Shown here in pieces: positions 4,802 to 32,543 of a DNA stretch of 58,050 nucleotides. Each line of letters opens with the position of its first letter. Within the stretch, counting starts at the first letter, position 1. Under the pieces are notes generated by a model. The model worked only from the letters and a program-made list of their open reading frames with translations, ran no database searches and had not been told where the DNA came from. The stretch is from a virus. Lineage: Duplodnaviria; Caudoviricetes. The stretch covers positions 1 to 58,050 of IMG/VR virus record IMGVR_UViG_3300035670_000246. One strand, given 5' to 3'. A program made the position numbers and the translations under genes.

Positions 4802-6027
4802 ATGAACACAGAACAAACCGCACAACAGCTCCGCCTCGCCGCCACGATCCTCGAAACCGGGCACCCGTGGGAGTATCAACCAGACCACTACAACTGGAAA
4901 CTCAGCCAAGGGCACTGCCCACTGTTCGCTATTGAGCAAAGATTTCCTATCCGCCTCGCCCTCGCAGTTCCACCAGACGGTCGCGATCTTCGCAACCCGG
5001 ACGATCTCACCGCCGATCAGGTGGGTGTTGGGTGGAGGCTGACATTGGCGGGTGAGGAGCCGCACGATGAGGCTGAGAGATGGAGCCTTATGCCTGCTCA
5101 TGGAAAAAACGTGAGTCTGCCGTTGGTTTGCCTTACAACCATCAAGACACCTATCGCGTCCCGCTCTCCGCCCCATGGCCTGAGTCTCCAAAGCCAGACC
5201 CATACGCTGAGCTGAAGGCGGCGCAGGCGGAGGGGAAGATGATACAAGTCCGCCCCAAAAACCGCACCGAAGACTGGCATGAGGAGTGGCAAGATTGCGT
5301 CCCAGAATGGCTCGACGGCTACGAATACCGCATCAAGCCCGAACCCACCTTCCAGCTCCCTCCAGCGCCTCCAGGCATGCGCTGGCACCGCGAGGACGGA
5401 TGGCAAGAGGGCGATCTGCCGCAGGGGTGGAGGCCATTGGTGGATGGTGAAAGAGGTCCTCCGACAGGCGAGATAAAGAGGCGCGGCAAATGGGAAACGC
5501 TGGATGCACCAAACGATATTCCTGGATTGCCTGCGAGAATTAGAACCTGTCATTGCCGCACCCGTCGCCCCCTGGCCTTCGAGCACGCTGGCAAGACTTG
5601 GACATGGCACCGCCCGGGCGATCCGATGCCGTGTGATGGGGATGCGCGGATTCACTATTTGACGAAAGAAGTAGAACACTCTGGAGTTTACAGCGTTGCC
5701 TTTGCGCAAAGAGCCGATTCCCGCAACTGGGACTCCACTTCTTCTATCATCGGCTGGCGCTACGCAGACGAAAAGAAAACCGTCCCGCTCGGACCTGAGG
5801 ACGTGCCTCCGGGGAGTGTGTTTCGCTATTCAGACTCAGACGACAAAGCAGCGTGGCAAGAGCCTCACGAGATAGACTATGAAGGCGCGGCGTTTCACAA
5901 CGGAGGCGGCAGCGTTATGTGGAAAAAATGGGACTACTTAGCCAAGGATTTTCAAATCAACCGCTCCATCCCGCTCACCGGCAAATGGGACGCCAGCGCC
6001 TGGGAACCTTGCAGCAAACAAATCTGA
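4802..6027 (+). CDS. Trp/Pro-rich hypothetical protein split across two frames (4802-5215 and 5080-6027)
   Basis: Overlapping ORFs related by -1; A_AAA_AAC heptamer at 5104-5110. Confidence 0.5.
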
Positions 6028-6035
6028 TCAACGCC

Positions 6036-6284
6036 ATGGACACATCAATAGTCAAACCAGGAACCCGTTGGTCCATCCAGTTCACTTCGGAGCGTTGCAT
6101 CGAAGTTCACATTGACACCGTCTTCGAGGACCGCGTGCGGTGGCGCTACAAGCGCAGTTATCACAACGAGATGTTGCAGGATTTTTGTTCCGACTTCCGG
6201 TGCGCCGTTCTCCTTCCTCCAAAACCGAAGCCGTGGTGGCGTAGAGTTCGGGACCTCTGGTTAGGACAAGGCTGGTGGGCGTGA
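6036..6284 (+). CDS. Hypothetical protein
   Basis: ATG just after the previous stop; KPKPWW C-terminus. Confidence 0.55.
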   Translation: MDTSIVKPGTRWSIQFTSERCIEVHIDTVFEDRVRWRYKRSYHNEMLQDFCSDFRCAVLLPPKPKPWWRRVRDLWLGQGWWA

Positions 6285-6353: not shown

Positions 6354-6989
6354 ATGGACATCTGGATCACGCTACGCGACGGCCGCACGGCACCCATGAC
6401 GGGTGTCACCGGAGTCACCTCCGTTGACACAGTCGGCACGGCCACGGAGTTCACGGGGGCGTCGATCACCAGTGGCAGCCCCAACGTCACGGTTGCCAGC
6501 ACCGCAGGCATCCGACCGGGCTCCAACGTCTATGGATCGGGCATCCCCACGGGAGCCACGGTCCTGTCGATCACCAGCGCCACGGTGTTCGTTCTTTCGG
6601 CCAACGCGACGGACACCATCGGCTCGCAGACGATCACGGTCACGACAGTGACTGACGCCGACCTCAAGCTGTTGACGGTCAACTCGGGGTGGTATCGGGA
6701 CATCTTCACACCGGACGGCATCCGGCTGGGGGCGCTCACGTCCGCCACGCTGGACACCATGACCGCCGCCCTCGTCTCGGACGTGTCCATCACGTCGCTG
6801 GAGCCGCCTACCGTGGAAGGCACGATCTCCACCTCCAACTCGGACGAGATCGGTCATGCCGCGCTGCGTCAGGCCACGTGGCTGGAGTCACTGTGGTGTT
6901 TCAGTTGCACTGTGGAAAGCGACACTCTTTCCTGCTACTACCGCAAGATCGACGTGATCGGCTGGTGCAACGTGGCACCGTCCCTCTGA
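6354..6989 (+). CDS. Putative virion structural protein (Thr/Ser/Gly-rich)
   Basis: TSGSPNVTVASTAGIRPG..GSGIPTGATVLSI beta-rich segment; strong codon bias. Confidence 0.6.
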   Translation: MDIWITLRDGRTAPMTGVTGVTSVDTVGTATEFTGASITSGSPNVTVASTAGIRPGSNVYGSGIPTGATVLSITSATVFVLSANATDTIGSQTITVTTVTDADLKLLTVNSGWYRDIFTPDGIRLGALTSATLDTMTAALVSDVSITSLEPPTVEGTISTSNSDEIGHAALRQATWLESLWCFSCTVESDTLSCYYRKIDVIGWCNVAPSL

Positions 6990-7001
6990 CCAACGTGACC
7001 C

Positions 7002-7802
7002 ATGGGAACGCCGATTGATTTCTACACGGTCAGCACGCCTAACCCGGCTGAGATCGCGTTCTACATCACGGTGGACGCCAACCAGCTCAACCCGGGCAAC
7101 GTGCCTGCGGTGGGAACTCCTTACAAACGGATCAACAACTCGTTCGTCAACCCGAGGGTCAATGAGTGCGGTTTCGGTGACTACGTGTACACCTACATGG
7201 CCCCCTCAGGCGACTCGTTGCAGTTGTTCTTCGGCAAGCCCAAGACCCAGGTCGAGAAGAACACGCCGTTTCGCACGGTGTACTCGACCAGGTATTACCC
7301 GTGGCCCCCGGTGCTGGAGGACCTGCGCATCCTCAAGACGACGGCCTTCCCGCAGTCGGTCTGGAACGGCACTGCCACGGTCACAGCGCCGCGCTACTTC
7401 CCGCGCTACCGCTACCGCCCGACGCCGAGCATCAACTCGGTCATCAAGATCGAGCAGTTCCTTGCGCCCACGCCCTACGACGGCCAGGCGTTGATCCACC
7501 CGCAGCCGACGCCCACGGAGGTCAGCGGCTACTATCTCGGCATGTCGGTCAGCTTCCCCAAGTGCCTGCACCCCAAGATCGTGCTCGATGAGAACATCCC
7601 GGGCGCGGTCGTGGTGGAGGGCCAGGGCACCGTGGACGTGCCGCGCACCAACAGCTCCACCAAGCAGGTGTTCCCGGCGACCAACTTCCTCGACTGGGCT
7701 CCTTTCATCCTGGAGGATCAGGTGCAGCCGGTCAGCGGCTTGTTCCTGCGCGAACGTGTCACCATCTACCCGCCGTTCCGGCCGCAGCCGATTGAGAGAT
7801 GA
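7002..7802 (+). CDS. Putative virion (tail-associated) protein
   Basis: 266-aa Pro/Tyr-rich ORF co-oriented with the upstream structural-like gene. Confidence 0.55.
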   Translation: MGTPIDFYTVSTPNPAEIAFYITVDANQLNPGNVPAVGTPYKRINNSFVNPRVNECGFGDYVYTYMAPSGDSLQLFFGKPKTQVEKNTPFRTVYSTRYYPWPPVLEDLRILKTTAFPQSVWNGTATVTAPRYFPRYRYRPTPSINSVIKIEQFLAPTPYDGQALIHPQPTPTEVSGYYLGMSVSFPKCLHPKIVLDENIPGAVVVEGQGTVDVPRTNSSTKQVFPATNFLDWAPFILEDQVQPVSGLFLRERVTIYPPFRPQPIER

Positions 7803-7897
7803 AACCCGCTCGCCACGGCTCCTCGCTTCGCTCGATGAAACCCGCTCGCCACGGCTCCTCGCTTCGCTCGATGAAACCCGCTCGCTTCGCTCGATGA
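7798..7897 (+). repeat. 36-bp tandem repeat (2 full copies + 1 internally deleted) forming a 32-aa mini-ORF
   Basis: GATGAAACCCGCTCGCCACGGCTCCTCGCTTCGCTC at 7798 and 7834, shortened copy at 7870. Confidence 0.9.
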
Positions 7898-8067
7898 TCA
7901 CAACTCAAAACGGCTCATACGAAGGCGACACCCCGTTTTTCAACCGCCCGTGGTTGTGGGGCCAGGATGGCATCCAGACCTACCGTGACCCCAACACCGG
8001 GAGCACCATGCTGAACGTCCCCACCGACCCCGTGGTCAGGTTCGACAATTTTACCTACATCGGATAA
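7894..8067 (+). CDS. Small hypothetical protein (57 aa)
   Basis: MITTQNGSYEGDTPFFNRPW...; ATGA-coupled to the mini-ORF. Confidence 0.55.
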   Translation: MITTQNGSYEGDTPFFNRPWLWGQDGIQTYRDPNTGSTMLNVPTDPVVRFDNFTYIG

Positions 8068-8068
8068 T

Positions 8069-8097
8069 TTGACAATGGAACGTCAAGGTGTTAGGGT
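8069..8097 (+). promoter_or_regulatory. Sigma70-like promoter
   Basis: TTGACA-17 bp-TAGGGT just upstream of ATG 8104. Confidence 0.5.
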
Positions 8098-8103
8098 TGG
8101 TCA

Positions 8104-8820
8104 ATGCTAGCAGTCACCATCGTCACCCCGGCCTACCGTCACCTTGAGAAGGAGGCGGTCAGGCGGTTCAAGAAACACACCGGACTGCCGGTCAAGGTCC
8201 TCCGGTGCAAGGACCAGGACGGGTTCATGACCAAGCTGGAGCTGGACCGCCACTGCCCCCAGGCCCGTGTGGTCTTCTTCGACGTGGACTTGTGGTTGCT
8301 GCGTGACATGAACCCGGAACGCTGGGATTCCTTTGGCTGGTCAGCCGTGCATGACAGCGCGGTCTTCAACCCGCATGCCTTTCCGCATACCGATTGTGGT
8401 TCGCACGGGATGAACCCTCTGCGCTACTTCAACAGCGGCCTGATGGCGTTCAATCTCGGTCTCCCCCATCACCGCAAGGTGTTTCAGGAGGCACGCAAGA
8501 TGCGCAAGCAGGTGCTTGCCGGGCGCATGCCGGTGCCCAAGGATGTCACCGACCAGTTCTACCTCAACATGGCGGTGCAGCGCCTGAACGTGTCACAGGT
8601 GATGCTCCCCACCAAGTTCAACTTCTACAAGAAGGCGTCCGACTGGGGGCAGCTTGCCTTCATCCCGCGATGCATCATCGGGTTGCACGCGGCGGGGGAA
8701 CCCGTCCGCAGCAAGCACCACGCCCTCAAGGTCCAGTCCGAGGTGTTCGGGAACGACACGTGCCCCGTGTGGCGGGACGCGGCGATCCACAACCAGAATG
8801 CTATTTTTGATCTGCGATGA
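8104..8820 (+). CDS. Glycosyltransferase (GT-A fold, GT8-like)
   Basis: FFDVD (DxD), YFNSG, TDQFYLN, LHAAG motifs. Confidence 0.75.
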   Translation: MLAVTIVTPAYRHLEKEAVRRFKKHTGLPVKVLRCKDQDGFMTKLELDRHCPQARVVFFDVDLWLLRDMNPERWDSFGWSAVHDSAVFNPHAFPHTDCGSHGMNPLRYFNSGLMAFNLGLPHHRKVFQEARKMRKQVLAGRMPVPKDVTDQFYLNMAVQRLNVSQVMLPTKFNFYKKASDWGQLAFIPRCIIGLHAAGEPVRSKHHALKVQSEVFGNDTCPVWRDAAIHNQNAIFDLR

Positions 8821-9464
8821 AAGCCCTCATCATCCACACCCCGGACATCGTCGAGATGGCGCGTGAGTGCGCCACCCGCGTGGCTCATTTCACCAACCTC
8901 AGGCCGGAATTGGTCGAGGCGGACAGTCGTTTCACGGCCCACCGGCTCAAGCTGGAGGCGTTCCAGTGGCAAAGCGAGCCTGTGTGGCTGGTTGATGCCG
9001 ACCTGTGGTTCATCGCGCCCTGCGTGCTGCCGGTGCTTTCAGGTCCTGTGATCTACGGCAACCCTGACAACTCCATCCTCAATCGGGAACGCTACGCATT
9101 CACCAAGGTCGAGATCAGTCACGCGTTCAACACGTCCTTGATCGGACTGGACCCGACGTGTCGCGAGGTGCGTGAGGCGCTGGAGGACGCGTCAGCCATG
9201 CAAGCTGAGCGGTACGGCCCTGAACCCGTCGAGGACGAGAAGTTCTTCAACATTGCCGTCTCGCGTCCAGGTCTCACCCTGTGCCGCCTGAGCACGCGTT
9301 TCAACTGGTGCGGCATCGATCCACCGGCCAGCACGGTCGCCGTGCATGCGGCGTCCCGCCGCGACAAGATGGCGTGGCTGCGGGAGGTGGTGGACGATCA
9401 AGCTCTGCCAGCAAGCCCTGGCGGAGCGCAACAACGAAGCGAAGGAGATTCAAGCCATGAGTGA
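8817..9464 (+). CDS. Glycosyltransferase (GT-A fold); current C-terminus supplied by an attC arm
   Basis: LVDADLW (DxD), FNTS, EDEKFFN, VHAAS; paralogous layout to 8104-8820. Confidence 0.7.
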   Translation: MKALIIHTPDIVEMARECATRVAHFTNLRPELVEADSRFTAHRLKLEAFQWQSEPVWLVDADLWFIAPCVLPVLSGPVIYGNPDNSILNRERYAFTKVEISHAFNTSLIGLDPTCREVREALEDASAMQAERYGPEPVEDEKFFNIAVSRPGLTLCRLSTRFNWCGIDPPASTVAVHAASRRDKMAWLREVVDDQALPASPGGAQQRSEGDSSHE

Positions 9465-9517
9465 CATTGATACGACAACAAGCGGGGCGCAGCTTGGCGG
9501 CAGCGTTTTTGTTCGCC
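9389..9517 (-). repeat. attC-like site (terminal, non-canonical R' G|TCCACC)
   Basis: Minus strand GGCGAAC AAAAAC GCTGCCGCCAAGC ... GCTGGCAGAGC TTGATC GTCCACC. Confidence 0.55.
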
Positions 9518-9828
9518 TTGGTCCCGGCTGTGGACTCAGTTACGCCGATCAAGCTAAATCCCTCGGTCTAAGAGTTGGGGACACTATCGTCGGGAAAGAG
9601 CATTACGGCGGCGGATCGTGGAGTGAGGCTGAGCTAACATTGCTGTGGATGGGATCGCAAATCTGCGTCTGGCGGCATCGCTGGCGCAACTCGCGCTTTC
9701 CTAACATCTGGAATGGTGGAGGCGAGGCCGCGAACTGGAGCCTGACCGACCGCGACTGGCATAAGGCGAACGCACAAGGTCTGGCGCAGATGCCAGCGCC
9801 GAAAGACTCCGAATCCATAACCGACTAA
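9457..9828 (+). CDS. Cassette-borne hypothetical protein (Trp-rich)
   Basis: Starts in the loop of attC 9389-9517 and stops in the loop of attC 9765-9866. Confidence 0.65.
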   Translation: MSDIDTTTSGAQLGGSVFVRLGPGCGLSYADQAKSLGLRVGDTIVGKEHYGGGSWSEAELTLLWMGSQICVWRHRWRNSRFPNIWNGGGEAANWSLTDRDWHKANAQGLAQMPAPKDSESITD

Positions 9829-9866
9829 CCCGCTGGCATCTGTTGCCAGCACCGACTTTGTTCGCC
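9765..9866 (-). repeat. attC-like site
   Basis: GGCGAAC ... CTGGCGCAGATGCCAGCG / CGCTGGCATCTGTTGCCAG ... GTTCGCC imperfect palindrome with bulges. Confidence 0.8.
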
Positions 9867-10340
9867 ATGTTGAATGACTCGCTATACAGCTCCGAAAAAA
9901 TGGATTGGGAAACGCCCGATCACCTCTTCCTTGGCCTTGATGCCGAGTTCGCGTTCACGCTCGACGTGGCCGCGAGCAAAGAAAACGCCAAGTGCCGCCG
10001 ATACTTCACGGCGGAGGATGACGGACTGAGCCAACCGTGGGAGGGAACCTGCTGGATGAATCCACCATACGGGCGGGAAGTGGGCGATTGGATGCGCAAA
10101 GCCGTAGAGGAGTCCAAGCGCGGCGTTCTCACCGTGGCCTTGGTGCCAGCACGAACGGATACGCGCTGGTGGCATGAGACGGCGATGAAGCATGAAATCC
10201 GATTCCTCGCACGCCGCCTGTCCTTCAAGGGATCTGGCAACAAGGCTCCTTTCCCGTGTGCCGTCGTGGTGATTCGCCCGCCGCACGCCGCAATCCTTTC
10301 TCTGGCGAACACGGATTATCCCGACCAAAATTCCAGGTAG
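9867..10340 (+). CDS. Phage-type DNA N6-adenine methyltransferase (cassette-borne)
   Basis: WETP, FTLDVAAS..NAKC, DGLSQPW, WMNPPY, LVPARTDTRWW, APFP. Confidence 0.9.
   Translation: MLNDSLYSSEKMDWETPDHLFLGLDAEFAFTLDVAASKENAKCRRYFTAEDDGLSQPWEGTCWMNPPYGREVGDWMRKAVEESKRGVLTVALVPARTDTRWWHETAMKHEIRFLARRLSFKGSGNKAPFPCAVVVIRPPHAAILSLANTDYPDQNSR
10310..10326 (-). other. attI/attG-like cassette target half-site
   Basis: Minus strand GGTCGGGATAATCCGTG|TT; 12/17 identical to 56791-56807. Confidence 0.55.
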
Positions 10341-10365
10341 CACCCCCCCCAAACCGGAACAACCT

Positions 10366-10923
10366 ATGAATGACCAACCCATCTGGACCAACGACTGGGC
10401 CACTTACCACTACACCAACTGGAAAAAGTTCCTTGGCAAGTTCCGGGATGTCCCGGCAATCGGCCTGGAGATCGGGTCATGCGAGGGCAGGTCATCCTGC
10501 TTCTTTGTCCAGAACATTCTCACGCACGCGGAGTCCAGGCTGATCTGCGTTGATCCGTGGGTGATGCCGGGGACTGAGGAGAGGTTCCAGCACAACATCG
10601 ACGTGCTTGGGTGTCGCCCCAAGATGGAGGTCCACAAGACGTTCAGCGACAGGTTCGACCTGAGCAACCACGCCAAGGTCGATTTTGTTTATGTTGATGG
10701 CTGCCACACGGCCCCGGCCACCCTCAAGGATGGAGTCCGTGCATGGATCGCGCTCAAGACGGGAGGGATCATGATCTTCGATGACGTGATGTGGCGGATC
10801 AACGAGCTTCCCCGGGTGGCATGCCCCAAGCTGGCGATTGACGCGTTTCTCACCGTGTTTGAGAAGGAAATGAGGGTTTTGCACGTCGGCAGTCAGGCAA
10901 TCGTTGAAAAGATTTCGCCTTGA
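10366..10923 (+). CDS. Class I SAM-dependent methyltransferase (Methyltransf_24-like)
   Basis: LEIGSCEGRSS, CVDPW, DFVYVDGCH, LKTGGIMIFDD. Confidence 0.85.
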   Translation: MNDQPIWTNDWATYHYTNWKKFLGKFRDVPAIGLEIGSCEGRSSCFFVQNILTHAESRLICVDPWVMPGTEERFQHNIDVLGCRPKMEVHKTFSDRFDLSNHAKVDFVYVDGCHTAPATLKDGVRAWIALKTGGIMIFDDVMWRINELPRVACPKLAIDAFLTVFEKEMRVLHVGSQAIVEKISP

Positions 10924-10977
10924 CGCTGCCCCACTTTTCTATTGTCAACCTGATTCCCGGGGAGGATTATCGCGGTC

Positions 10978-12057
10978 ATGGCTATCACCTCTGTTAGCGC
11001 GGGGCTAAACCCAAACAGATTAACGCGTGGCAACGGCGAGCACCCGGGTGTCGCGTTGATGCGTGCAAGCGGGGGAAACTACGGAGGCTTCTCGTTTCCA
11101 AGGACCACCTCGAACAAGCGCATTCAAGGATACTCGCAAAAGCAGGGACCTCCTCCTCGCGGTTTTGGTGGCCTGAACGAGTATTACATGAAGCAGCAGT
11201 TCAAAGACGCCTCCCCGCAGGCGATTGACGCCGCAGCACAAGAAGCCCGCAAAGCCGGGGTTTTGGTCAATCAGCAGGGCCAGCGAACGGCTGACACATG
11301 GTCCAACCGAGGCATGACCTCGTCCCGGGCGGCGGCAGCCAACCCATATCAGAAGACCGTGACACCGACTTCAGGCCCCACGGATGCTCAGCGCCGATGG
11401 TTCAATGTGGCCTCCAGCCAAGGCTCCCCGGCATCAGAGGTTCCTTCGGGCGCTGCCGCAGGTTCCTTGGGGTCGGCAATGGGCGGCAGCGGTCTCTCGC
11501 TTCCGTCCCGGGCGTCTGCCGCCAACCCGTACACCCGGGCAGGCAACATCGCCAACGCCAAAGCGGCGGGTGAGTTCGGTGACGTTCGTGCGGCCTACAA
11601 CCGTGACAACGCCGCCCAAGGCTATAACATGGATGAGGCAGGCAACATCTCCGAGGACATGGCGCAGAAGCAGGCGTTCGCCCGCAGTCAGCTTGCTCCT
11701 ATCGCCGAGGACATCGCGGCACGGCGTGACTTCGCCCGTGGTGAGGCTCCGGTACGTTTCAGCGGCCCGGACATGAGCGATCCCAACGCCGACGAGATGT
11801 CACCAGGGTTGCGCCGGGCGGAGAAGATCAATCCGTACGGCACAGCCACGGCGACCTATGGTGCCCCGTCATCCGTGGCAACTACCCGTGATGCCATGGG
11901 CCGCACGGTCCCGTTGGCCGAGTTCCTGCGCACGCAGCGGGCGATTCAGGACACCAAGTTCAACGCGGGTGAAGACCAGCCTCTTGGGCAGGCCAACGCC
12001 GAGCAGTTCCGCAAGATTGCCCGTGGCGGCAGCATCAACACCAGCCGTCGCACATGA
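10978..12057 (+). CDS. Putative internal virion/ejection protein
   Basis: 359-aa Gly/Ala/Gln-rich ORF heading a structural-type operon. Confidence 0.5.
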   Translation: MAITSVSAGLNPNRLTRGNGEHPGVALMRASGGNYGGFSFPRTTSNKRIQGYSQKQGPPPRGFGGLNEYYMKQQFKDASPQAIDAAAQEARKAGVLVNQQGQRTADTWSNRGMTSSRAAAANPYQKTVTPTSGPTDAQRRWFNVASSQGSPASEVPSGAAAGSLGSAMGGSGLSLPSRASAANPYTRAGNIANAKAAGEFGDVRAAYNRDNAAQGYNMDEAGNISEDMAQKQAFARSQLAPIAEDIAARRDFARGEAPVRFSGPDMSDPNADEMSPGLRRAEKINPYGTATATYGAPSSVATTRDAMGRTVPLAEFLRTQRAIQDTKFNAGEDQPLGQANAEQFRKIARGGSINTSRRT

Positions 12058-13031
12058 ACACCAGACTGACGGTAGCCGACGTGCGGGCGCAACTCTGGCA
12101 ACTGGCCGACCCCAACGACCAGAACAGCGTCACGTTCCTCAACATGCTCAACGAGGTGTGCGAGAAACTCACCCTGAGCGGCAAGTGGAAAGGGTCCGTC
12201 ATCTACGTCACGTTTGACTCATCAACCGGCTATATCAGCCTGCCTCCCGAGGCGTACTCGGTGCTCTCCATGAGCTACAACCGGGTCCCCGCGATGACCT
12301 TCACGCAGTTTCACGGATTCCAGGAAAACGGTCCCGGAAACTTGGAGGAGACACTCAACTGGCCCGGCATCCTGATCGAGCAAGGAGACGGGTTTGTGAC
12401 GCAGGAAGACATCCCCGCCAACACCACGGCCAACCTGCGGGTGACGCTCTCCAATGCAGCCGACGCAGGTAAGACTTTCCGGTTCTACGGCCTCAATGGT
12501 GACGGCAACCCGATCTACGATCTGACCACGGGCGTCGAAGGCATCGACCTGACCAGCGCCTACCCGTCTGCCGACACGCCGGTCACCACCAGCCAGCTTT
12601 TTACGGCTGTCACAGGCATCCAGGCTCCGGCTGACCTCAAAGGCTCATGGACTCTGTCCTATCTGGTGAGCGGCACCGCGACGGTGATCGGGCAATACAT
12701 GCCATGGGAGACGCGCCCGATGTACGCCCGGTATCAGACCGGCACGGCGGAGAAGACCATCCGCATCCTCTGCCAGCGTCGGTTCCGGCTGCTGCGTAAC
12801 GAGACCGACTGGGTGATACCCGGCAACCTGGGGGCGCTGCGGGAAGGCTTCTGGCACCTGAAATATCTCAACGCCTCCGACGACGAGAAGGCCAACGCCA
12901 AGTTCGAGCGGGCGCTCTACTGGCTCAACAATGAAGCCCGGTCAGCCCGTGGCGGGGCGACGGCCTCGACCAACTTCCAGAACTGGGGTGTGTCGTCCTA
13001 CTATGGCTGTGACGCCATGCCCAACTACTGA
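12054..13031 (+). CDS. Putative tail adaptor/tubular virion protein
   Basis: Helical termini around a beta-rich core; position in structural operon. Confidence 0.5.
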   Translation: MNTRLTVADVRAQLWQLADPNDQNSVTFLNMLNEVCEKLTLSGKWKGSVIYVTFDSSTGYISLPPEAYSVLSMSYNRVPAMTFTQFHGFQENGPGNLEETLNWPGILIEQGDGFVTQEDIPANTTANLRVTLSNAADAGKTFRFYGLNGDGNPIYDLTTGVEGIDLTSAYPSADTPVTTSQLFTAVTGIQAPADLKGSWTLSYLVSGTATVIGQYMPWETRPMYARYQTGTAEKTIRILCQRRFRLLRNETDWVIPGNLGALREGFWHLKYLNASDDEKANAKFERALYWLNNEARSARGGATASTNFQNWGVSSYYGCDAMPNY

Positions 13032-13036
13032 CCACC

Positions 13037-13957
13037 ATGCCGCCCCCTTCAGTCACCCCAGCGATGCGTGAGTTCGGTTTTGGAGCCAAGCGCGTGCTCC
13101 AGCCTTACCAGAACCCGGAGGCCAAGGACTTCTTCCGTGCTTTCCGCCCCTCGCAGGAAGAACTGGACAACCCGTTCCTGTCGTCCCCCTATGCCCGGCA
13201 GCAAGACGCCCTGGTGGCGCAGGAGGACGTGGTCAACCAGCAGCTTGCGGCCGAGCAGGCGCAGATGATGGCGGACCAGCGCAAGGCCAGCCGTCTGGAG
13301 CAAGTCTATGAGGCTGAAGACCTCGCCAACGAGGCGCTGGCCTCCGGTGTGCCGCCCGACGAGGTGATCCAGCGGTTTCCCCGGCTGGCGCAGTCTCCGA
13401 GTTTCAGCAATTACATGCAGCAGGCACGCGAGGTGCGCCCGGCGCAGAAGACGCTGGCTCCGCATTTTCGTCAAAGCCTCAAGAGCCCGACGGCACGAAC
13501 CTACTTTGACCGTCATTTTCAAACCACAGGAGACGCCACGCAGGCTTACGATTTGGCGCAGGCGGACGAAGAGCAGGACGACATCCGGCTCGAACTCGTA
13601 AAGAACGGAGTCCCCGTTGAGATAGCTGAGGCCAAAGTCTGGACCCCATTGGCGGCACAAGCGGCCATTCAGCAGTTCAGCCGAAAAACGGAGGACGACC
13701 CGAACGAACTGGCCTACAAGAAGACGGTGGACAAGTATTTCGCCGATCTGGCGAACTCTGCTGCCATGGCTATTGATGGAGAAGAAAAGAGCACGGAGCA
13801 GATCAAGGCGGACCTTGACCGCATCCGCAGTATTTTCTATCCGCAGGCCGCGCCAGCGCCGGTCTCAACGGTCAAGCCACCCACTGCCACTAAAGCCACG
13901 TCCAAGGTCAAATCCCTGGCGGAACGCTACGGCATCCTCAAACCTAAACAGCCATGA
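13037..13957 (+). CDS. Putative internal virion/ejection protein
   Basis: Ala/Gln-rich helical ORF coupled to the giant gene. Confidence 0.5.
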   Translation: MPPPSVTPAMREFGFGAKRVLQPYQNPEAKDFFRAFRPSQEELDNPFLSSPYARQQDALVAQEDVVNQQLAAEQAQMMADQRKASRLEQVYEAEDLANEALASGVPPDEVIQRFPRLAQSPSFSNYMQQAREVRPAQKTLAPHFRQSLKSPTARTYFDRHFQTTGDATQAYDLAQADEEQDDIRLELVKNGVPVEIAEAKVWTPLAAQAAIQQFSRKTEDDPNELAYKKTVDKYFADLANSAAMAIDGEEKSTEQIKADLDRIRSIFYPQAAPAPVSTVKPPTATKATSKVKSLAERYGILKPKQP

Positions 13958-16900
13958 GCCCTTGGGAAGACATCGAGGCTGATCCCGAGTTTGGCACGCT
14001 GACTCCTCAGGAGAAGGTGTCCCTGTTCGACGATTGGCACAAGAACACCGTCAACAGCTTTGCTGAGATCGACCCGGAAGAAGTGGACCTTCAAGGTCTC
14101 AAAGGATTCATGGCGTCAGGTCAGGTTAAGCGCCGGGAGCTTCTTGGGGAACCTGTGGACCCGGACCAGATCACCCAGCAGTACCTGACGGGGTTGACGG
14201 AGCGCAACAAATCCCAGAAGCAGATGCTGGCGGATTACGACGCTTTGGAGAAGGCCCGGTTTAACTTGCAAGACGCAACTCTCCAGAAAGGGGTTACCTC
14301 CGCAGGAGATCGGGGCATGATCATCAGCCCCAAAGTTCAAGAGATTCTCGGTAAACCAAAGCAACAAGCGGAAAAGGAGTTTGAAATCGCTCGCAGCAAG
14401 TTCACCCCCGAACTGGAGCAGCAGGCCCGGGAGGCACGTGAGGCCATGCGTGGAGAACGCCCGGTGGCAGTTCTCGGCAGCGACATCTACACCGACCCGT
14501 CGCTGACACTGGACAAAGAGGAGTACCGCAGAGCGGTAAACGGAACCTCAGCTTCGCCAGAAGCCAAGATGCTCGCGTTGGCGGATTTCTCTTCTCGCCG
14601 GGACGAGTTCGCGAAAAACGCTCTTCGTGCGTTTCGAGTTGCGGGTGAGGCACCGATTCCAGGCATGGAGTCTTTCGCGTCGTGGGAGGCGAAGCAACCT
14701 GAAGAGACACGTGTCAAATCTCCAGAAAGCAAAGCCCTCGAATACCTCCGTCAGATGCGTGGACGAGAAGGTTACCGTAAACTGATCAGCGCCATTGGCA
14801 CCGGGGCTGTTCAAGGTGGGGCGGACGTGGCATCTCAGGCCGTTGGCACGGCTGCCATGATCACCGGAGACCGAGGGCTTGCTCAAAAAGCGGGGGAAGT
14901 TCAAAAAGGCGCGGAAGCGTTGTCTGAAGTCCAAAAGCTCGAAGGAGACATGTCTGCCACAGGTGCCACCACGGCTGGCGGCGTGGCACGTCTCGGAGTT
15001 GGCATGGCTCCCGCAATCGGAGCAGGCCTTCTCACCGGAGGCAGTCTTCCGGCTGCCGCGTTGGCGGCTGGAGCACAGACCGCAGGCGCTCAATTCCCAT
15101 CGACGTACAACGCGATGCTGGAACAGGGGAAAAGTGAAGAGGAGGCACTACGTGCCTCTCGCGGAGCCGCCCTCATGTCCGGGGCCGTGACTTCAGCATT
15201 GACCGCACTTGGGGGAACGTCTGGCGTGGAAGCGTTGATCCGCCGCAGCGGTGAAGGGTTTGCCCGTGGGCGCGTTGCCTCCATCCTGCTTGGGTCAATC
15301 AAAGAAATACCCGAAGAATTGGCTGATGAGGCTGCCAGTCAGGTTATTGAGTCGAGCCTGACCAACCCGGACAAGCCGGTGTCCCAAGTGGTCGATGAGT
15401 TTCTTGGGCAGGCCCCCGACCTTGCCTTGCAAGTCGGACTCCTTGGAGGAGCTGGTGAAGCCTTCTCTTCTGGAGGAAAGACACCGCCCACATCCCAGCC
15501 CACGGAAGAAACCGAAGAGCCGGTGGTTCTTGGGCGCACGGTGCAGCAGGTGCTCGACGAAGCCGACGCCGTCAGCGCCCGGGCAGTCGTGCAAGCTGAG
15601 GAGGCAGGGTCGCCTTTGCTGGCGCAGGCCATCGCAGAACAGACGGCTGCCACGGTTCCCGAGGCTCAAGCGGAAACCGCAGAGCCAAGCGGACAGACGG
15701 AACCAGAGGTAGCCGCCGAAATCCTTCCCGAAAAATCTCCCGCAGTCAACGCCGTTACCACAGAAGAACAAGAAACCCTCCCCCTGTTGCCACAGGAGGA
15801 GGGTCAGGCCGGTGAGTCGCGAACTCCGGCAGAAGGGTCGATTCCTGCCGTTACCGCAGAGAAAATGCCTGATACTTCAGAAGTGTCAAGTGTTGCCCCT
15901 TCTGCCGGAGTTGAGCGTAATCGGGCGTTGATCGCTCAAGCCGCAACCACAAACGCCGGACGTGCCCAGGTGTCAGCCAACGAGTACATCCAGAAAGCGG
16001 CAGCAGCACCGCAGCCGAACCTTCCTCCAATCACCACGCAAGGTGGAGAGGTGGAAGTCCAAGCCGCGCCTGAGCGTACGGTCGAACAGAATCCGATTGC
16101 CGCGATGGCCGCACAAGCCGCCGCCAAAGCCCGAGGAGAGGTCAAGGAAGTCAGCGCCCCTCTGGCACGGATGTTACAGCCTTCTCCGCCGTCGCCGTCA
16201 GCTCCGTCTGGCTTGGGCGCAGGTGCCGCTACAACTCCGCAAGGAGCCATTGAAAGTCCCACAGCACCAGCGACGGCGGAGGACATCGCCGACCGCATCA
16301 ACGCGTCGTCCTTGTCTCCTGCGACGACCTATCCATCTCTGGTGCAGGACATCAAGAGTCTCACGGAAGGCAGGCCAGCACGGTTGCAGGAAGTCGCCGA
16401 CGCCCTGTTCGAGCAACCCATGCAGCGCCCGACTGCCGAGAAAATCGCACGCCGCCTGCTCGACGAAAATGCCGCCGAACGCGAGGTCACGGCTTCGCGT
16501 GATCGCCGGGTCGCCCGTGAGATGATCGGCGAGGAAGAGAACCAGCGTGGCGGCGAAGCGCCGGTCAGCGATGACAAGGCCCCCTTGGAAAAGGGCGAGT
16601 TCGTCGCGTGGCAGGACGAGAACGGCGCGATGCAGGAAGGCGTTCTCACCAAGATCAGCGCCGGTCGAAACAACCTTGGCGAACCGATGTCGGAGGTTAC
16701 CTTGGAAACCAGCGAGGTCGTGCAGGTGCCACGGCGAGAACTGAGGCCTATGGCGTCCATGAGGCCGGATGCGCGTGATGCCGAATACCTCGCCGCCGTT
16801 GAAGCTGGCGACATGGCGAAGGCGCAGCGGATGGTGGATGAGGCGGCGAAGGCGGCGGGGTATAACGTGGGGCCGGTGTATCATCACGGTGGGTTCGACA

Positions 16901-19900
16901 TCCAGGAAAACGCCGTCCCAGACACATCTCGTGGCTTTCACATGGGCACCCGGCAAGCCGCTGAAGAGAGGGCTTTTGGCAAACCTGTCGATGATTTTAT
17001 AGCGGAGGCCGAAGTAACGTACGATGAAGGCCTTGGTGCCTGGTTTTGGTCATCACAAGGAGTGGACAGTTACGACGTGGTCGATGAGGACGGGTTCAGT
17101 AGCGAAGAGAGGGCTCGCCGCAGCTTAGAAGAATATGCCTCCCAAGAGGATTTCAGTGGTTCTGACATCGAAGACCTTGGTAAACTGACCGCTGCGTATT
17201 TGAGGGTGTCTAACCCGTTGGTAGTGGCTGACCAAAAAGCGGACTGGGACGGCGTGATTAAGCGAGCGGTGTCTGGCGGCTATGACACCGTGCAGTATCG
17301 CAATGACTTCGAGGATAAAGGGTCAACTTCATACATAGCCCTGCAAGAAGGGCAGATCAAATCCGCCGATCCAGTCACCTACGACGACGCGGGGAACGTG
17401 ATCCCGCTCTCACAGCGTTTCCAGACGACCTCGCCGGACATCCGTTTCAGCAAGAAACCGACGAACCCAGTTCGCGACGCCCGTGCCGCAGCGATCAAGT
17501 CACTGCGCGGTCACCTCGGAGAAGAAGTCTCGGTCGGTGTGTCCGCCGTGGACGGCATCAACGCGATGACCAGCCTTCAAGGTGCCGTGCCTGGAGTGCA
17601 GAAGGCATGGATCGGCACGCGTGAGGATTTTCTTGCGGATGAATCCCTCGGCCGTGCCTTCCCCGGCATCCGCCGCGAACTGGAGAGCCCGCGAGGAGAT
17701 CAACTGGAAGGTCTGTTCGACGGCGGCCGGGCGTTCGTGTTCATCAACAACGTCGGCGTTTACGAAGGCGATGTCCGTGTCGCCAAGGAACAGTCCGAAC
17801 TGACTGGAGAAGAGGTTACTCCGCAACAGGCAGCGGTGCAGCGCGTCATCACTCATGAAGGGCTGGTGCATCGCGGGTTCTATGCTCTCGACAAGGACAC
17901 CCGGCGTGCGCTGTTCCAGTGGGGCGCTCAGAACATCTACGAAGCCGAGATGGACGCGATGGCCGAGGAATACGGCTACGCTGACGACTGGCGCACCAAC
18001 GAACGGTCCCGCGAGTGGATCATGGAGGAGATTCTGGCGAAGAAGATCGAGCGCCTCAAGGCCCCGCCGAAGTCAGGCCCGCTCAAGGCCCTGTGGGACA
18101 TCCTTGTCTCGTTGTGGCGAAAGCTCACGGGCAGCGTGCAGGAGGTCACCCTCAAGGACATCCAGGATGTCGCCAAGGTGCTGCGCACCGCGTTGGAGCT
18201 GTCCGAGAACAACGTCGAGACGCGCAACGGGATGCCGATCCGGGTGGAGGTAGCCAAAGGTTCCCTCCGCCCCCGTTTCACCAGCCCGCTTGACGCCACG
18301 CTCTCGGACACTGCGAAGGCCCTGCGCCTCATGCGCGACGGCCCACCCGCAACCCCTGTGGACCTGCAACAAGCCTACGCCACGGCCGTGCGTGGCAAGT
18401 CCTCGGCCATGGTGTCGCTCGACGACCTGTTCGCCGCCGCCAAGGCATCCGCTCCGTCCCTGACCGAGGCTGAATTCGGACAGCAGGTGCAGAACCTCTA
18501 CAACGACAACGGAGCCTACGTGGAGTCCGCCGAGTCGCCTGCTGTGATGAAGCAGTCCGCCGACCGCTACAACGTCCGCTCGTCTCAAGGGATTCCGGCG
18601 AGTTACGTGATGATCCTGGAGACCGGACGCCCGATGGCGTCCATGAGGCCGGAGACACCCTTCTACTCGAAACTGTCCCGCGTCGTATCGGATAAGATGC
18701 CGAATCGCGCCGATGTCGCGACCATCAAGGGCATCATCACGAACCCGCAGACAGGCATCAAGGCAGAGGAACTGAAGTGGAGCGGGATCGTGCCGTGGCT
18801 TGATGCTCAAGAGGGCATGGTCACGAAACAGGCCGTGCTCGACTACCTCGCCAGCGACGGCGCGGTGAGGCTGGAGGAGGTGCGGATGGGTGGACAAGAT
18901 CGAACCATCAAACCGGGCGCTGTTTTTGGTGATTACCGCGTGATTGATGATGCTGGCGACTTGGCTCTTGAAAGAGTGGACGATGGTTCTTTTGTTCGTT
19001 CTGGCACCGCTGAACAACTAGCGGATTACTTGGAAATAGGCACTGGCGAAAGTGGAGCAGGAACCAAATACGCCCAATACCAACTACCCGGCAGCGAGAA
19101 CTATCGCGAGGTGGTGCTGGCGATGCCGGTTGAAAGACGTTCGATGACAGAAGCAGCGGCTGTTTATTACAACACTTTTGTTCGTCGTGGGGGCGAGCCT
19201 CAATGGGCTGAATTGCCAGAAAGTCGGCGCTTGCAGATCATCACGGAAACGCCCGCAGAAGCATTCAACGAACCACCTGAATACACCTCCAGCCACTTCC
19301 CCGACGTGCCGAACTACGTCGCGCACATGCGGCTGAACGACCGCACGGACGCCGAGGGGCAGCCGGGGACGTTCATCGAGGAAATCCAGTCCGATCGCCA
19401 TCAGCAGGGACGGGAGAAGGGGTATCAGGGACAACGTGACCGCTCTCTAAGCGTGAAATGGGATGCCAATCTTCAAACCTGGAAAGTTCTCAACGAAGAG
19501 GGTCGAATGGTTGGGGGATTCCAAACCGAAGAAGCGGCAAAAGCCGCCGCTAATAAGTTTGCGTCAGGCATCCCCGACGCCCCTTTCCGAACAACCTGGC
19601 CGCTGCAAATGTTCAAGCGCGCCCTCGCGGACGCGGTGGCGGCGGGCAAGCAGTGGATCGGCTGGACGACCGGCGAGACGCAGGCGGAGCGGTATGATTT
19701 GAGCAGGCAGGTGGACAAGATCGAAGTTTACCCTTTGGAAAAATCACCGGGCATGGTGGCTATCACAGCCTACAAAGATGGCCGCCAAGCCATTCGGCAG
19801 GATGTCGCACGTGGTAGCATGGCGGATTTGATCGGCAAAGAAGCTGCTCAAAAAGCCGAGCAACAGATTCAACAGAACAACTTTGCCACCCTCGAAGGAG

Positions 19901-22900
19901 ACGGCCTCAAAGTCGGCGGCGAGGGCATGAAGGGCTTTTACGACACCATCCTGCCGAAGGAAATCGGCAAGTATGTGAAACAGTGGGGAGCTGGCGTGGT
20001 GAAGGGGGAAGCAGTGACTCGAAAGGAATCGTTTGAAGAGTCTCCTATTTCTTTTGATGATTCCCCTGTTCTTGTGCGCCAACAAACCACCCCCATCTGG
20101 CGCGTGGACATCACGCCGTCGATGCGCGAGTCGATCCAGAAGGAGGGCCAGCCTAAATTCAGCCTCCGTCCTGACGCCGCACGACGCCTCAACCGTGCCG
20201 TCTGGGAGGCTCAGGAAGCCTCCGGCCCGATCAAGGATTCCGAGCAGACGCCACTCAAGGACTACCCGGTGCATTCGTTCGCGCAACAGTCCGGTAAGAG
20301 CCGCACGGACGTGGCCATTCAGGTCGTGGACGAGCTGCTCAAGTCTGGTGTGCCCGTCAACGGACTTGTCGATGCCATCAACAGCTACGAGCTGCACCGC
20401 CAGCTTGGCATCGAGCGCGATCCTGACATGCTCGGCATCTTGCTGGCCGAGGCCATGCTCCGGGGCGACCCCAACGCGTTCAAGGCGCATCAAGATATTC
20501 GTTCCCGCATTGGACGTGCTCAAGGGACTGGAGCCATCCTGCACAAGGACCCGAGGTACCAACACCTGTTCTTGCTCGAAGGCATGAAGGACGAGCAAAT
20601 GCAGCAGGCCCGCGACATCCTCAACGCCAACGCGCCGATGAACGCGGACGAGGTGAGCCGGTTGGACGCGGAGGCGGGGCGGACGGCTGCGGCAGAGGAT
20701 GCCGGGGCAGTCCAAGATGCCCTGGAAGAAGACCTTCTGGAGATCGGTGAGAAAGGACTTTCTCCCAAAGAGCGCACGCTGTGGGAGAAGGCAAAGTATC
20801 TTGTTGCCCGTATCGGTTACCTCCTAAAACTCGGATCAGGAGATGCCAAGCCATCACTACGTTTTGAGTTTCCTGACTCCGAGAAGCAGGCCCTCTCAAA
20901 ACTCTCGGCGGACGAGAGGCAGAAAGAGTTGCAGAGGACGCGTGCAGAACTTCGCGCCACTTTGGGCGAATTGCTCGGGCAGCGCAAGCCACGTAAAGTG
21001 GCTGGCGGTGTCGAGACCATCGAAGGTGACCTTACCACCCGTGCGGTTGCTGACATGGTCCAACGCATGCAGGAACGCCTCAACATCCCGGTGGACACTG
21101 CCACGGCGATTGACGCCTTGACGACCACAGGAAACCTCAAAGGTCAGTTTGAAAACTTCATCTCCGACTCGCTGATCTCAAAAGTGAAGTCGGCCATGAC
21201 GCCGAAGCAGGCCCCGGTCAAAAACCTGAACAGCGTCATCAGGCAGATCACCAGCATCCTTGCGGACAACCTCAACTTGCCAAAGGCGCAGACGGCCAAA
21301 GAGTCTTTGGGGGAACGTGCTCTTGACACCTTCGGACGTGTCCGGTCCAATGAACAGATGATCCGGGAAGCGTGGGAACGTTCCCGTGAAGGCATCCGGC
21401 AGTATCTTGCCGAACGCGCCGTCGAGGGCAAGGAAGGTCTGACCGAGGAAGAGGCCGCAGAGATTGAAGAGGCGGTTGATGCACAGCTTGACGCCATCGC
21501 GTCCTCGGTGCCAGCTCGCATGTGGGCGCGTGGCCAGGCTTACAGCCTGATCCGGGACGCTCTGGAAGGCTCCAAATTTGGCACCAACGAGGACATCTTG
21601 CGTGACCCGCAAGCTGCTTTGAAAACAGTCCAGGACCTCCTCAACTCCGAGGTGGGCAAGATCGGCAACGTGGACCCGGCACGCTGGGACAGTGACCAAG
21701 CCTACATTGTGGCGGCGTTCAATTCGTTGGTGGCCGATCTCAAGGAGCGCAAGGCCAAAGCGGAGGCACGTCGGGCAGGCAAGACCCGCTCAGGGTTGAT
21801 GACTGGATCGGATAAAAAGACTCTGACATCGCTTATCGAGCAGGCTCGCAAACGCTCTGGGGACAAGGCTCCGCTCCTGCCTGACAGCGCCACCTGGACG
21901 AAGATTTTCAGCGGGTCGCCGCAGTCGCAGGAGGCGAAGGCGAGAGAGATGCTGGACTACATGAAGGCGGACCCGCTGCTCGCGAATCTCACGGCTGCCG
22001 AGCAACAGCAGCTTGCGGACATGTTCGCACGTCGCTGGGAGAAGAAGCGCAAAGAACTCCTGGAGGCCAAAGTCGCTTCCATCCTCAAAGCGCGAAACGC
22101 CACCCCCAAAGGCAAGAACGCCGCCAAGGACGCGGTGCCGAAGTTCATCCAGGCGATCAACCGTGGTGAGCTGACCAACGATGTCATTGCCGAGGAGATC
22201 GCAGAAAAGTTTGGTTTCGAGAAACTCACCGAGGGCGAGAAGAAAACGCTCGAACGGTTGTCCCGGGAACTCCAGGAACCCAACCTTCCGCAGCACGAGA
22301 AAACCGCCAAGATCGACGAGATGGCGAAGATCATCGCGAAGAAGACCCGCATGTCGATGGCTGAGATTTTGTCAGCGTGGTGGGTGACCTCCGTGCTCTC
22401 CGGGCCGCGCACAGCCTTCACCATCGGGCTTGCCGCCTCCAACGGTGCCTTCGAGGTGCTGGGGCACGCGGTGTCCACGGTGCTCAACGCCAACTGGAAC
22501 GGTCGTCGTGCGGAGGGTCTCGCCGCCACAGGTCAGGCGCTCACCAACTACTTCAAGTCGTGGCCGCGTGCCATCCAGCTCGCGTGGCAGTACGTCCTGA
22601 CAGGTGACAAGAAATTGCTCTCCGCAATGGACCCGGCCTACTCGCAGTTCTTTGAGACAGGTCGCAACAACCCGCTGTCGGTGGGATGGAGACTGTCGCA
22701 GTCCAAAAACCCCGTGGCTCGTGCCACCGGCCGGTTCATGCATTTCTTCGAGAAATTGCTCTCCGCGCTCGACTTGTTCACGGCGACCACCACGCGTCAC
22801 GGCATGCTTCCGATCTCCTACTACCTGAACCAGAAGGTGTACGACAAGGCACGTGCCGCGAGTGAGACCGATCTGGCAAACTACCGGAAGAAGGTGATCG

Positions 22901-27401: not shown

Positions 27402-27484
27402 TTTAGTTTGTCCTCCGCGCTGGGTGTGATAAATCAAGCGCAAACCTGAGCACGCTTGCTACCGATTTACGCAAACGACGCCGC

Positions 27485-27617
27485 AGCGAACAAATCGCGG
27501 CAGGATCAACCGCCTTGGCGGTCTGGACTTCGGCGGCTTCTGTCTTCGATGGAGGCGGCATGGTTGACGTGGGGTAATTGTGGTTATTCGGCGGTGCCTG
27601 CGCTTGGGTCGTTCGGC
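27485..27617 (+). repeat. attC-like site
   Basis: AGCGAAC AAATC GCGGCAGGATCAACCGCC ... GGCGGTGCCTGCGC TTGGGTC GTTCGGC. Confidence 0.75.
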
Positions 27618-27829
27618 GTAGCTCGACATGCCTTCCACGAATCCCACCACCAAAAGAGCGGGTCGATCAGCCTGTGAATTGGATCAGTTGAATCATCCAC
27701 GCAGAGCGCAGCCGGACTCACAAACAGCAGCACGATCAGGTATGGAGGTCCTGCGATGAGAAGCAGCGCAAGCAGCCCAACACGCCGAACAAAACGGATG
27801 CAGGCGACGGCTCGAAAAGGATTTGTCAT
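27584..27829 (-). CDS. Cassette-borne small membrane protein
   Basis: Hydrophobic stretch; starts and stops inside flanking attC-like sites; cassette spans 27612-27871. Confidence 0.6.
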   Translation of the reverse strand: MTNPFRAVACIRFVRRVGLLALLLIAGPPYLIVLLFVSPAALCVDDSTDPIHRLIDPLFWWWDSWKACRATPNDPSAGTAE

Positions 27830-27877
27830 GGTGTCGAAAGTTTGTTGCTCGCCGTCGCCTGATCCGAGTCGTTCGGT
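27784..27877 (+). repeat. attC-like site (most canonical example)
   Basis: GCCGAAC AAAA CGGATGCAGGCGACGGC ... GCCGTCGCCTGATCCG AGTC GTTCGGT; single extrahelical G. Confidence 0.85.
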
Positions 27878-27912
27878 GTGCCATATAGTGAATCGCCAAA
27901 CGTGGAAGCACG

Positions 27913-30813: not shown

Positions 30814-31046
30814 GCTTGGTGGTCTTGAATCGCTTTCTTGAGCGCCCGCCTTTCCTTCTTGGACATGCGGGTGCGTTTGAGGATGTTGCCGTCAGGCCCC
30901 AGTTTGCGCAAGCTGCGAGTCCGGGGATCGAAGACGTAGGGCGTGCCGTCCGCCGAGACGCCTCCGATGCCGGAGATCGTCTTGATGGGGCGTGGTGAGT
31001 CGATGACGATGACGATGTCGTTGAGTTCAGAATAATTGGCGGTCAT
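30810..31046 (-). CDS. Small hypothetical protein
   Basis: ATGA-coupled at both ends; basic C-terminus. Confidence 0.55.
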   Translation of the reverse strand: MTANYSELNDIVIVIDSPRPIKTISGIGGVSADGTPYVFDPRTRSLRKLGPDGNILKRTRMSKKERRALKKAIQDHQA

Positions 31047-32493: not shown

Positions 32494-32543
32494 TTCCGTG
32501 ACATATAGCCTTGACGGGCCGCCGTGGTCAAGCATAATTCGGC

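Follow-up and report, generated by a model that had tools for sequence, protein, structure and literature searches.

Here we describe an insertion of two apparently mobile units at the 3' end of GT2, a putative glycosyltransferase gene of an uncultivated phage (virus record IMGVR_UViG_3300035670_000246). The window, by which we mean the whole stretch of DNA analyzed, comprises the full record of 58,050 bases, with an estimated completeness of 91%. About 915 bases, carrying an open reading frame (ORF) called orf123 and a Dam-like methyltransferase gene of family PF05869, lie between codon 193 of GT2 and its last 10 codons, which are now read by Dam. We consider it probable that two integron-type cassettes were inserted at a secondary site that acts as a hot spot for cargo. 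With no integrase encoded nearby, they would form a CALIN (cluster of attC sites lacking an integrase). As Qi 2023 (PMC9892861) uses the term, a CALIN has at least two nearby attC sites called by IntegronFinder or by HattCI and Infernal, and no integrase; here the sites are those of a rule-based scanner. The features on which the argument turns are the following.

8817..9464, + strand: GT2, paralogue of GT1; native part 8817-9394, last 23 codons (9395-9464) from the inserted DNA
9389..9395, + strand: left junction as placed by contig and protein divergence, a proposed secondary site whose hybrid R' box reads GGTGGA|C (- strand, G|TCCACC)
9395..9770, + strand: putative cassette B (376 nt), made up of element B and the orf123 core, with the 3' end ...AAGGCGAA
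9457..9828, + strand: orf123, with AAGGAG 8 nt 5' of its ATG; its start overlaps the GT2 stop (ATGAGTGA)
9771..10309, + strand: putative cassette A (539 nt), made up of element A and Dam, with the 3' end ...TGGCGAA
9867..10340, + strand: Dam-like N6-adenine DNA methyltransferase (PF05869; phrog_111, E 9.4e-55)
10310..10340, + strand: right junction and relic of the GT2 3' end (C ACG GAT TAT CCC GAC CAA AAT TCC AGG TAG), now the last codons of Dam

We compared the locus with that of relatives. DNA could be read across the site in two distinct IMG/VR phages, L001 and L003 (L006 is identical to L003 in each ORF read), one of which was also recovered from Joint Genome Institute (JGI) metagenomes. 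Both have the order GT1-GT2-Methyltransf_24 with zero genes between, and the end of GT2 overlaps the start of Methyltransf_24 by 32 nt; their GT2 proteins are 53-60% identical to that of the window and their Methyltransf_24 proteins ~70%. When GT2 was aligned with 16 homologues (3 close, 13 distant), similarity stopped at ...WLREV[VA]. The tail ...V[KQ]N[YH]ERN..P..* was present in 13/13 distant homologues (48-60% identical). The three close ones (P0001-P0003; 96, 93 and 82% by BLASTP) diverge from the window straight after ...WLREV[AV], and beyond ...LREV the window, P0001/P0002 and P0003 have different continuations. The short tail of P0003, GGEATQQRS, resembles ...GGAQQRS in the window and may be cargo related to the window's. 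These alignments indicate that orf123 and Dam are an insertion, that the empty state is widespread and that the window's sub-lineage is variable at exactly the GT2 3' end.

The two sides of the insert read GTG GTG GAC GAT CAA (9387-9401) and AAC ACG GAT TAT CCC GAC CAA AAT TCC AGG TAG (10308-10340). Removal of 9395-10309 (915 nt, 305 codons) keeps the GT2 frame, gives the protein the end ...REVVDTDYPDQNSR* and yields a predicted empty site GGTGGA|CACGGATTAT. A reading of the sequence alone had proposed that DNA was inserted into the 3' end of GT2, with the operon still readable and the last codons of GT2 now used by Dam; the retained frame, the insert-free GT-GT-methyltransferase order in L001 and L003, and the location of the last 10 codons beyond the border bear this out. 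When cassette-free homologues were compared at their C-termini, as it had proposed, their tails followed the conserved pattern given above and not ...VDTDYPDQNSR*. We did not count the differing tails as refuting because a ~95% identical relative with other cargo has 10314-10365 in common with the window. Profile scores of rebuilt GT2 tails were uninformative (272.2-274.6 bits for all variants). Just downstream, the window has a run of eight C's at 10341-10365 (AGCACCCCCCCCAAAC), where L001 has AGCAATACCCCAAAC at 6598-6612, and the start of Methyltransf_24 is apparently shifted (M-N-D-Q-P-I-W in the window, M-S-E-T-A-I-P-Q-T-P-E-W in L001). From this comparison, the right junction region appears to have been remodelled beyond the insertion itself.

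Independent sequences placed the joints to within a few bases. We compared window positions 7000-12500 with Logan contigs from four runs of four other studies, here called X5 (wastewater), X6 (estuary), X7 (soil) and X8 (sludge). The X5 contig, ~98% identical, tracks the window over 7712-9387 and then runs into 470 unlike bases; another contig resumes at 10366. In X7, a ~95% identical contig tracks 7000-9397 before becoming unlike (AAAAAAAAGCAC...), and a second resumes at 10314, preceded by ...GGGATAACAGT. The X8 contig leaves at 9397 into sequence of the X7 kind and resumes at 10366 after ...GCATAACAACGACC. The bases preceding these points read ...GATAAC AGT in X7 and ...GCATAAC AACGACC in X8, so that the cargo has AAC 3 and 7 nt, respectively, before alignment resumes. 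The Dam gene has also been found with other neighbors: the X6 contig is 88% identical over 9939-10310 and then carries 349 unlike bases, and two Dam proteins found by BLASTP, P0017 (97%) and P0018 (95%), agree with the window until ...SL[A/E]N, in which N148 is codon AAC at 10308-10310. After that residue they read VPITGEP* and DEVSDGG..., compared with TDYPDQNSR* in the window. The translation 5' of Dam in P0017 is similar, not identical, to that of the window.

These sequences place the right border at 10310 (P0017, P0018, X6) or 10314 (X7) and the left at 9397 (X7, X8) or 9387 (X5, 7-8 nt off); the middle joint falls at 9769-9771 (the end of an X5 contig, and P0016, which possibly reflects a frameshift). 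Most of these borders are within 0-4 nt of 9394|9395 and 10309|10310, alignment ends being unable to fix the dinucleotide. The predicted pair of units, with one GGTGGA|C and two GGCGAA|C crossovers, thus agrees with most independent borders. Since the same Dam has at least three different downstream sequences, all starting straight after AAC, the Dam unit appears to be mobile, as the sequence-only reading had supposed. Close relatives carry differing cargo at the site, which indicates that it is a hot spot; the several cargoes and the placement of the ORFs on the attC 'bottom' strand (below) go beyond what that reading had claimed. We had also considered breakpoints that would remove 9396-10325 (...VVDQNSR*) and dropped them: in X7, 10314-10365 is backbone in common with the window, and the Dam homologues part from it at 10310 rather than 10325.

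The putative cassettes each begin with a hairpin resembling an attC site. On the bottom strand, attC folds into an imperfect hairpin whose R' carries 5'-RYYYAA|C and whose R'' carries GTTRRRY (Nivina 2016, PMC5027507). According to that paper, each arm has a spacer of 5-6 unpaired nt, and the whole site measures 57-141 nt. Two or three bases are extrahelical on the L'' arm; the first is usually G, and a 6-bp stem separates it from the last, a conserved T. Three elements in the window have a layout of this kind.

9765..9866, + strand: element A, 102 nt, R box GGCGAAC/GTTCGCC, spacers GCACAA/GACTTT, then GGT:ACC
9389..9517, + strand: element B, 129 nt, R box GGTGGAC/GTTCGCC, spacers GATCAA/GTTTTT, then GCT:AGC
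27784..27877, - strand: element C, 94 nt, ACCGAAC...GTTCGGC (6/7), spacers 6+6, bulged C and T

In all three, a 6+6 spacer is followed by 3 bp, a bulged C, 6 bp and a bulged T, with the bulges on the 3' arm. In element A the R boxes pair at 7/7 positions, C9850 is bulged, CTGGCG pairs with TGCCAG, T9843 is bulged, and a 12-bp stem closes a 32-nt loop; free DNA folding reached this layout unforced (-26.8 kcal/mol, z -3.8). Element B has bulged C9501, CTGCCA:TGGCGG and bulged T9494, a layout obtained with pairing imposed. The 3' arms of A and B are identical at 21/27 positions, and compensatory changes are found at four paired positions: GGT:ACC becomes GCT:AGC, and within the 6-bp stem G:C becomes C:G, C:G becomes G:C and A:T becomes C:G. 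These pairs were counted by script, the MAFFT alignment having split the 6-bp stem. Just inside the left joint, at 9402-9427, a 10-bp stem with a 6-nt loop (GCTCTGCCAG/CTGGCGGAGC) competes with the long-range pairing of element B.

The borders are also marked by inverted repeats, TGTTCGCCA (9859-9867) with TGGCGAACA (10303-10311) and GTTCGCCTT (9511-9519) with AAGGCGAAC (9763-9771). By count alone these are not beyond chance: three perfect 9-nt pairs and one 12-nt pair occur in 1301 nt, where N^2/2/4^9 gives an estimate of ~3, and GTTCGCC shows no enrichment in the window (15 copies versus 13.85 expected). They rise above chance because they are positioned at borders confirmed by independent sequences. 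On the + strand the order is GGTGGAC (9389), GTTCGCC (9511), GGCGAAC (9765), GTTCGCC (9860) and GGCGAAC (10304), and the core copies ending in AAC or GAC are those at the three joints.

We examined how well each R'' box matches the far end of its own unit. In cassette B, R'' (GTTCGCCTT) is complementary at 9/9 positions to its own far end (AAGGCGAAC) and at 5/9 to the adjacent hybrid R'. In cassette A, R'' (GTTCGCCA) is complementary at 8/8 positions to its own far end (TGGCGAAC) and at 7/8 to the adjacent R'. Element C behaves in the same way (8/8 and 7/8); its putative cassette would run to CGCCGAA|C, with the matching far end CGCCGAAC at 27611-27618. The complementarity to the own end in A, B and C corresponds to the signature expected of circularising units. 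The sequence-only reading had reported the 9/9 and 8/8 matches and framed the insert as integron-like; the matches exist and are better than those with the adjacent R', and A and B fit the published attC geometry. Within 27584-27877 on the - strand, element C lies 36 nt past the end of a 405-aa gene (radical-SAM-like by eye), and an 81-aa hydrophobic ORF starts in its loop. A search for its flanks in a relative, G001 (record 59% complete), found the 353-aa gene (67% identical) and did not find the 405-aa gene.

To search for such sites systematically, we wrote a scanner from the rules in Nivina 2016, covering the R box with AAC/GTT, the spacers, the bulges and the 6-bp stem; in a relaxed form the 5' triplet is [AG]AC. 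In the Vibrio phage MK672802 it gave 15 matches, all in the integron array and on the expected strand, together covering 14/15 of the repeat copies, and 0 elsewhere (41 kb). In the Tetrasphaera phage TJE1, which carries a published CALIN, it gave 2 matches, at the ends of the methylase gene and of orf3, and 0 elsewhere (49 kb). Run strictly on the window, the final scanner returned A and C, and the [AG]AC triplet added B and three weaker matches. Under stricter rules, 0/100 random windows (AAC) and 1/200 ([AG]AC) had any match, and A, together with B if relaxed, survived. A and B are 248 nt apart on one strand by this scanner; as a same-family pair at that distance on independently mapped joints, they are very unlikely to be due to chance. 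Elsewhere, L013 (IMGVR_UViG_3300025121_000080) has two coding-strand scanner matches 1.3 kb apart (4907-4968 and 6197-6254), at the ends of small ORFs and 1.5-3 kb downstream of a Dam homologue (57% identical). These could mark a further CALIN in a phage, or they could be false positives of the same kind.

In the reading we favor, each cassette would be laid out on the + strand as C, attC-like hairpin, GTTCGCC, ORF body and GGCGAA. The + strand would then have the layout of the recombinogenic 'bottom' strand, in which the 5' arm carries AAC and the 3' arm the two bulged bases, and the joints would lie between A and C at GGTGGA|C (9394|9395), GGCGAA|C (9770|9771) and GGCGAA|C (10309|10310). A host integron integrase would have joined a circular two-cassette molecule, or two cassettes successively, to an attG-like G|TCCACC in GT2, and could later have swapped cargo at the GT2 site; we infer joining at a secondary site from known integrase biology. 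Because the core GGCGAAC holds no stop codon, ORFs on the + strand read through the joints. GT2 gains 23 codons and ends inside element B, and Dam starts directly past GTTCGCC and ends in the relic of the GT2 tail. We found no promoter-like or terminator-like site within the insert and no terminator-like site across 9300-10400, so the cargo is probably read with the phage operon. By analogy with orphan phage methylases, the benefit of Dam would likely be self-methylation of phage DNA against host restriction.

A bolder version, which we hold to be possible but doubtful, is that the GT2 3' end is a phage-borne cassette dock, where host integrases would repeatedly load and unload GC-rich inverted attC cassettes, there and at ~27.8 kb, with the cargo expressed from the operon. 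If so, this phage lineage would take up anti-restriction and other genes from the integron cassette pools of its hosts, and phages would make regular use of the integron system instead of carrying its parts by accident.

Several observations weigh against the integron-type reading. No tyrosine recombinase (PF00589) was found in the 58-kb record, which is an estimated 91% complete. The insert-free gene order was found in relatives, but the exact empty junction GGAGGTGGTGGACACGGATTATCC was not found in any of the sequences searched; in the four Logan runs zero contigs join 9387-9397 directly to 10310-10366, contigs showing presence and not absence and uncovered parts of the insert carrying no weight. 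The R boxes GGCGAAC/GTTCGCC agree with RYYYAAC/GTTRRRY in the triplets and otherwise in just the first and last letters: the base beside the triplet is G/C, where all 17 control sites have TAAC/GTTA. The first bulged base is C instead of the usual G (mostly A in the Vibrio control). Element B was missed by free folding (z +0.74), which preferred a local hairpin, and it has GAC as 5' triplet, which would follow from an R' that is part element, part target. All three ORFs are on the attC 'bottom' strand, opposite to both controls, and orf123 starts inside B, spans the A/B joint and stops inside A.

Other points concern the scanner and the searches. The scanner was written after element A had been seen, and a first version with an extra rule (two further pairs) found 0 real Vibrio sites, whereupon the rule was dropped. 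The looser scanner needed for real attC sites gave a mean of 0.23 matches per random window, 37/200 of which had at least one, and 5 matches in 486 kb of other, mostly Dam-bearing loci. Searches with the hairpin arms gave 7 IMG/VR and 5 GTDB matches, with zero likeness beyond the pattern; the hairpin has no other copy in the window and no Rfam family, plasmids yielded only distant Dam genes, and reference phages only Dam. P0016 ends in ...WHNAN RHK*, so that its divergence after AN could be a joint or a frameshift in homologous DNA. Finally, a high-depth X5 contig (depth 91; phage-relative contigs in that run, 6-10) starts at AAC 9769, is near-exact over element A and no longer matches past GTTCG, a side on which the model has no crossover. 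With an extra assumption, the contig may fit a family of similar attC sites on different genes; otherwise the hairpin could be an independent module.

In a different account, the site is an ordinary moron hot spot: genes would arrive by illegitimate or microhomology-mediated recombination and be swapped by homologous recombination in the conserved flanks, the hairpins being regulatory or resembling terminators on the mRNA strand and GGCGAAC a short microhomology linker. No integrase would then be needed, the R-box letters could lie off consensus, and the genome-wide count of GGCGAAC/GTTCGCC would be at chance, as it is. The hairpins are on the coding strand in 3/3 cases, each past the end of the upstream ORF and before or over the next start. 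The coding-strand matches at ORF ends in L013, possibly of the same non-integron kind, and the X5 contig joining element A to a different downstream gene, also suit this account. It leaves unexplained, however, the base-exact attC geometry of three elements with compensatory changes, the best match of each R'' to the far end of its own unit, and the AAC in the X7 and X8 cargo 3-7 nt before the contigs resume; nor does 9300-10400 hold a terminator-like site. On balance we regard it as rather unlikely.

We give far less credence to the possibility that orf123 and Dam are ancestral and were deleted in relatives, leaving the empty site as a scar and deriving the relatives' GT2 tail from the end of Dam. 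In gene order, the two DNA-readable relatives resemble each other more than either resembles the window, and a single loss could fit the DNA evidence taken alone. Yet 13/13 distant GT2 homologues, from several subgroups, share one conserved tail overlapping the start of Methyltransf_24, close relatives hold other cargo and not nothing at the same joints, and the Dam unit is found elsewhere with other downstream sequence. The tails of Dam relatives are unconserved, so the shared tail is not a feature of Dam. An assembly chimera or chance is barely credible, even for a metagenome-assembled virus: all sampled words of 8100-10950 are present in four runs of one study (possibly the source sample), the frames are coherent over three joints, and the GT2/orf123 overlap (ATGAGTGA) comes with a Shine-Dalgarno sequence. 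We therefore retain the integron-type insertion as the probable explanation.

The five genes of the locus, GT1-GT2-orf123-Dam-Methyltransf_24, are all on the + strand and have structural-looking neighbors. Two of them flank those listed above.

8104..8820, + strand: GT1, putative GT8-like glycosyltransferase, DxD motif FFDVDLW
10366..10923, + strand: Methyltransf_24, downstream backbone gene (PF13578, E 1.9e-17), 70% identical to that of L001

The glycosyltransferase label of GT1 and GT2 is modestly supported by sequence similarity. The window proteins had zero Pfam, PHROG or PDB-sequence matches, with none to PF01501 (Glyco_transf_8) even at E 10. The GT1 orthologues of L001 and L008 scored 22.1 and 16.7 bits against that family, below the 24.3 cut-off; GT1 and GT2 match each other by BLASTP (E 1e-7) with their DxD motifs aligned. 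The AlphaFold model of GT2 was too poor for use, with a predicted local distance difference test (pLDDT) score of 48. For orf123 there were zero Pfam or PHROG matches, 0 IMG/VR relatives and only weak, unnamed Atlas matches; a large protein set held one homologue, P0016 (78% identical, 106 aa). Membership of Dam in PF05869 is clear (101.4 bits against a gathering cut-off of 28.1, E 5.5e-29, residues 9-137), and no partner nuclease was seen beside the gene. Its relatives at E<=1e-30 number 1739, the majority on phage-like contigs. Among 51 IMG/VR relatives the match usually stops near residue 135-143, followed by unconserved tails of 0 to ~25 aa.

Other features of the window were noted in passing. 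A perfect 36-nt tandem repeat (2.4 copies) lies at 7798-7886, between a 266-aa gene and GT1. Relatives' contigs in X5, X6 and X7 skip 48, 116 and 95 bases at this place, respectively, and these different extents mean that copy number or content differs among relatives. Downstream of the locus, 13954-24312 is a single 3452-aa ORF. On the - strand, 26382-32562 is a gene block that, judged by eye, resembles enzymes of sugar or nucleotide modification, with several methyltransferase-like and glycosyltransferase-like ORFs and one radical-SAM-like ORF, which suggests a second modification region besides GT1-GT2-Methyltransf_24.

Integron components in phages have been reported only recently and are apparently rare. 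Phage CALINs with methylase cassettes are already described; the present case contributes joints that window-independent sequences resolve to a few bases, cargo that differs at these joints from one close relative to the next (samples from wastewater, soil and sludge), a layout in which the phage operon probably reads the cassette genes, and a putative attC type that is GC-rich and inverted. If an integrase is responsible, phages would have a route to gain methylases and counter-defense genes from bacterial cassette pools, and the GC-rich attC type would be one that current models may miss.

In Qi 2023 (Front Microbiol, PMC9892861), phage CALINs number 17 among 10,705 genomes, with five methyltransferase cassettes, and inverted GTTRRRY motifs are found at CALIN borders. 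The window resembles these in its attC-type hairpins, small cassettes, missing integrase and methyltransferase cargo, and in TJE1 our scanner puts attC-like sites right after the 'modification methylase' gene. Unlike them, its cassettes lie inside the 3' end of a gene without breaking the frame, have a GC-rich core (GTTCGCC) and bottom-strand ORFs, and give way to other cargo at the same joints in close relatives. Cassettes are reported to be inserted outside integrons at secondary or attG sites (Loot et al. 2024, Nat Microbiol, as cited in PMC12614218). As far as that citing source describes such insertions, the window shares with them an attC-bearing cassette at a non-attI site and a hybrid core on one side, and differs in that its target is a phage gene and its hybrid core is G|TC.

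A further parallel is the Vibrio phage MK672802, which carries part of a chromosomal integron: core and inverse core alternate at the borders in both, and the attC lengths (94-129 nt) and geometry match. In that phage an inverted methyltransferase coding sequence (29527-30195) ends at the first base past the G|TT crossover (core 29526-29532). Classical integron arrays differ from the window, which has no attI, no intI and all ORFs inverted relative to attC, and whose core is stop-free, so that its ORFs read on into the next segment. With orphan phage Dam genes the window shares the family PF05869, whereas most Dam relatives have no attC-like neighbor (the 5 matches in 486 kb given above). In the hyperplastic regions of T4-type phages, small accessory ORFs lie between repeated stem-loops and vary among close relatives, as is also familiar from phage morons; in the mobile regulatory cassettes of these regions each repeat contains a promoter, and recombination relies on homology inside the repeat. 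Unlike those cassettes, the window would have its joints at one fixed dinucleotide, one of them beside plain backbone.

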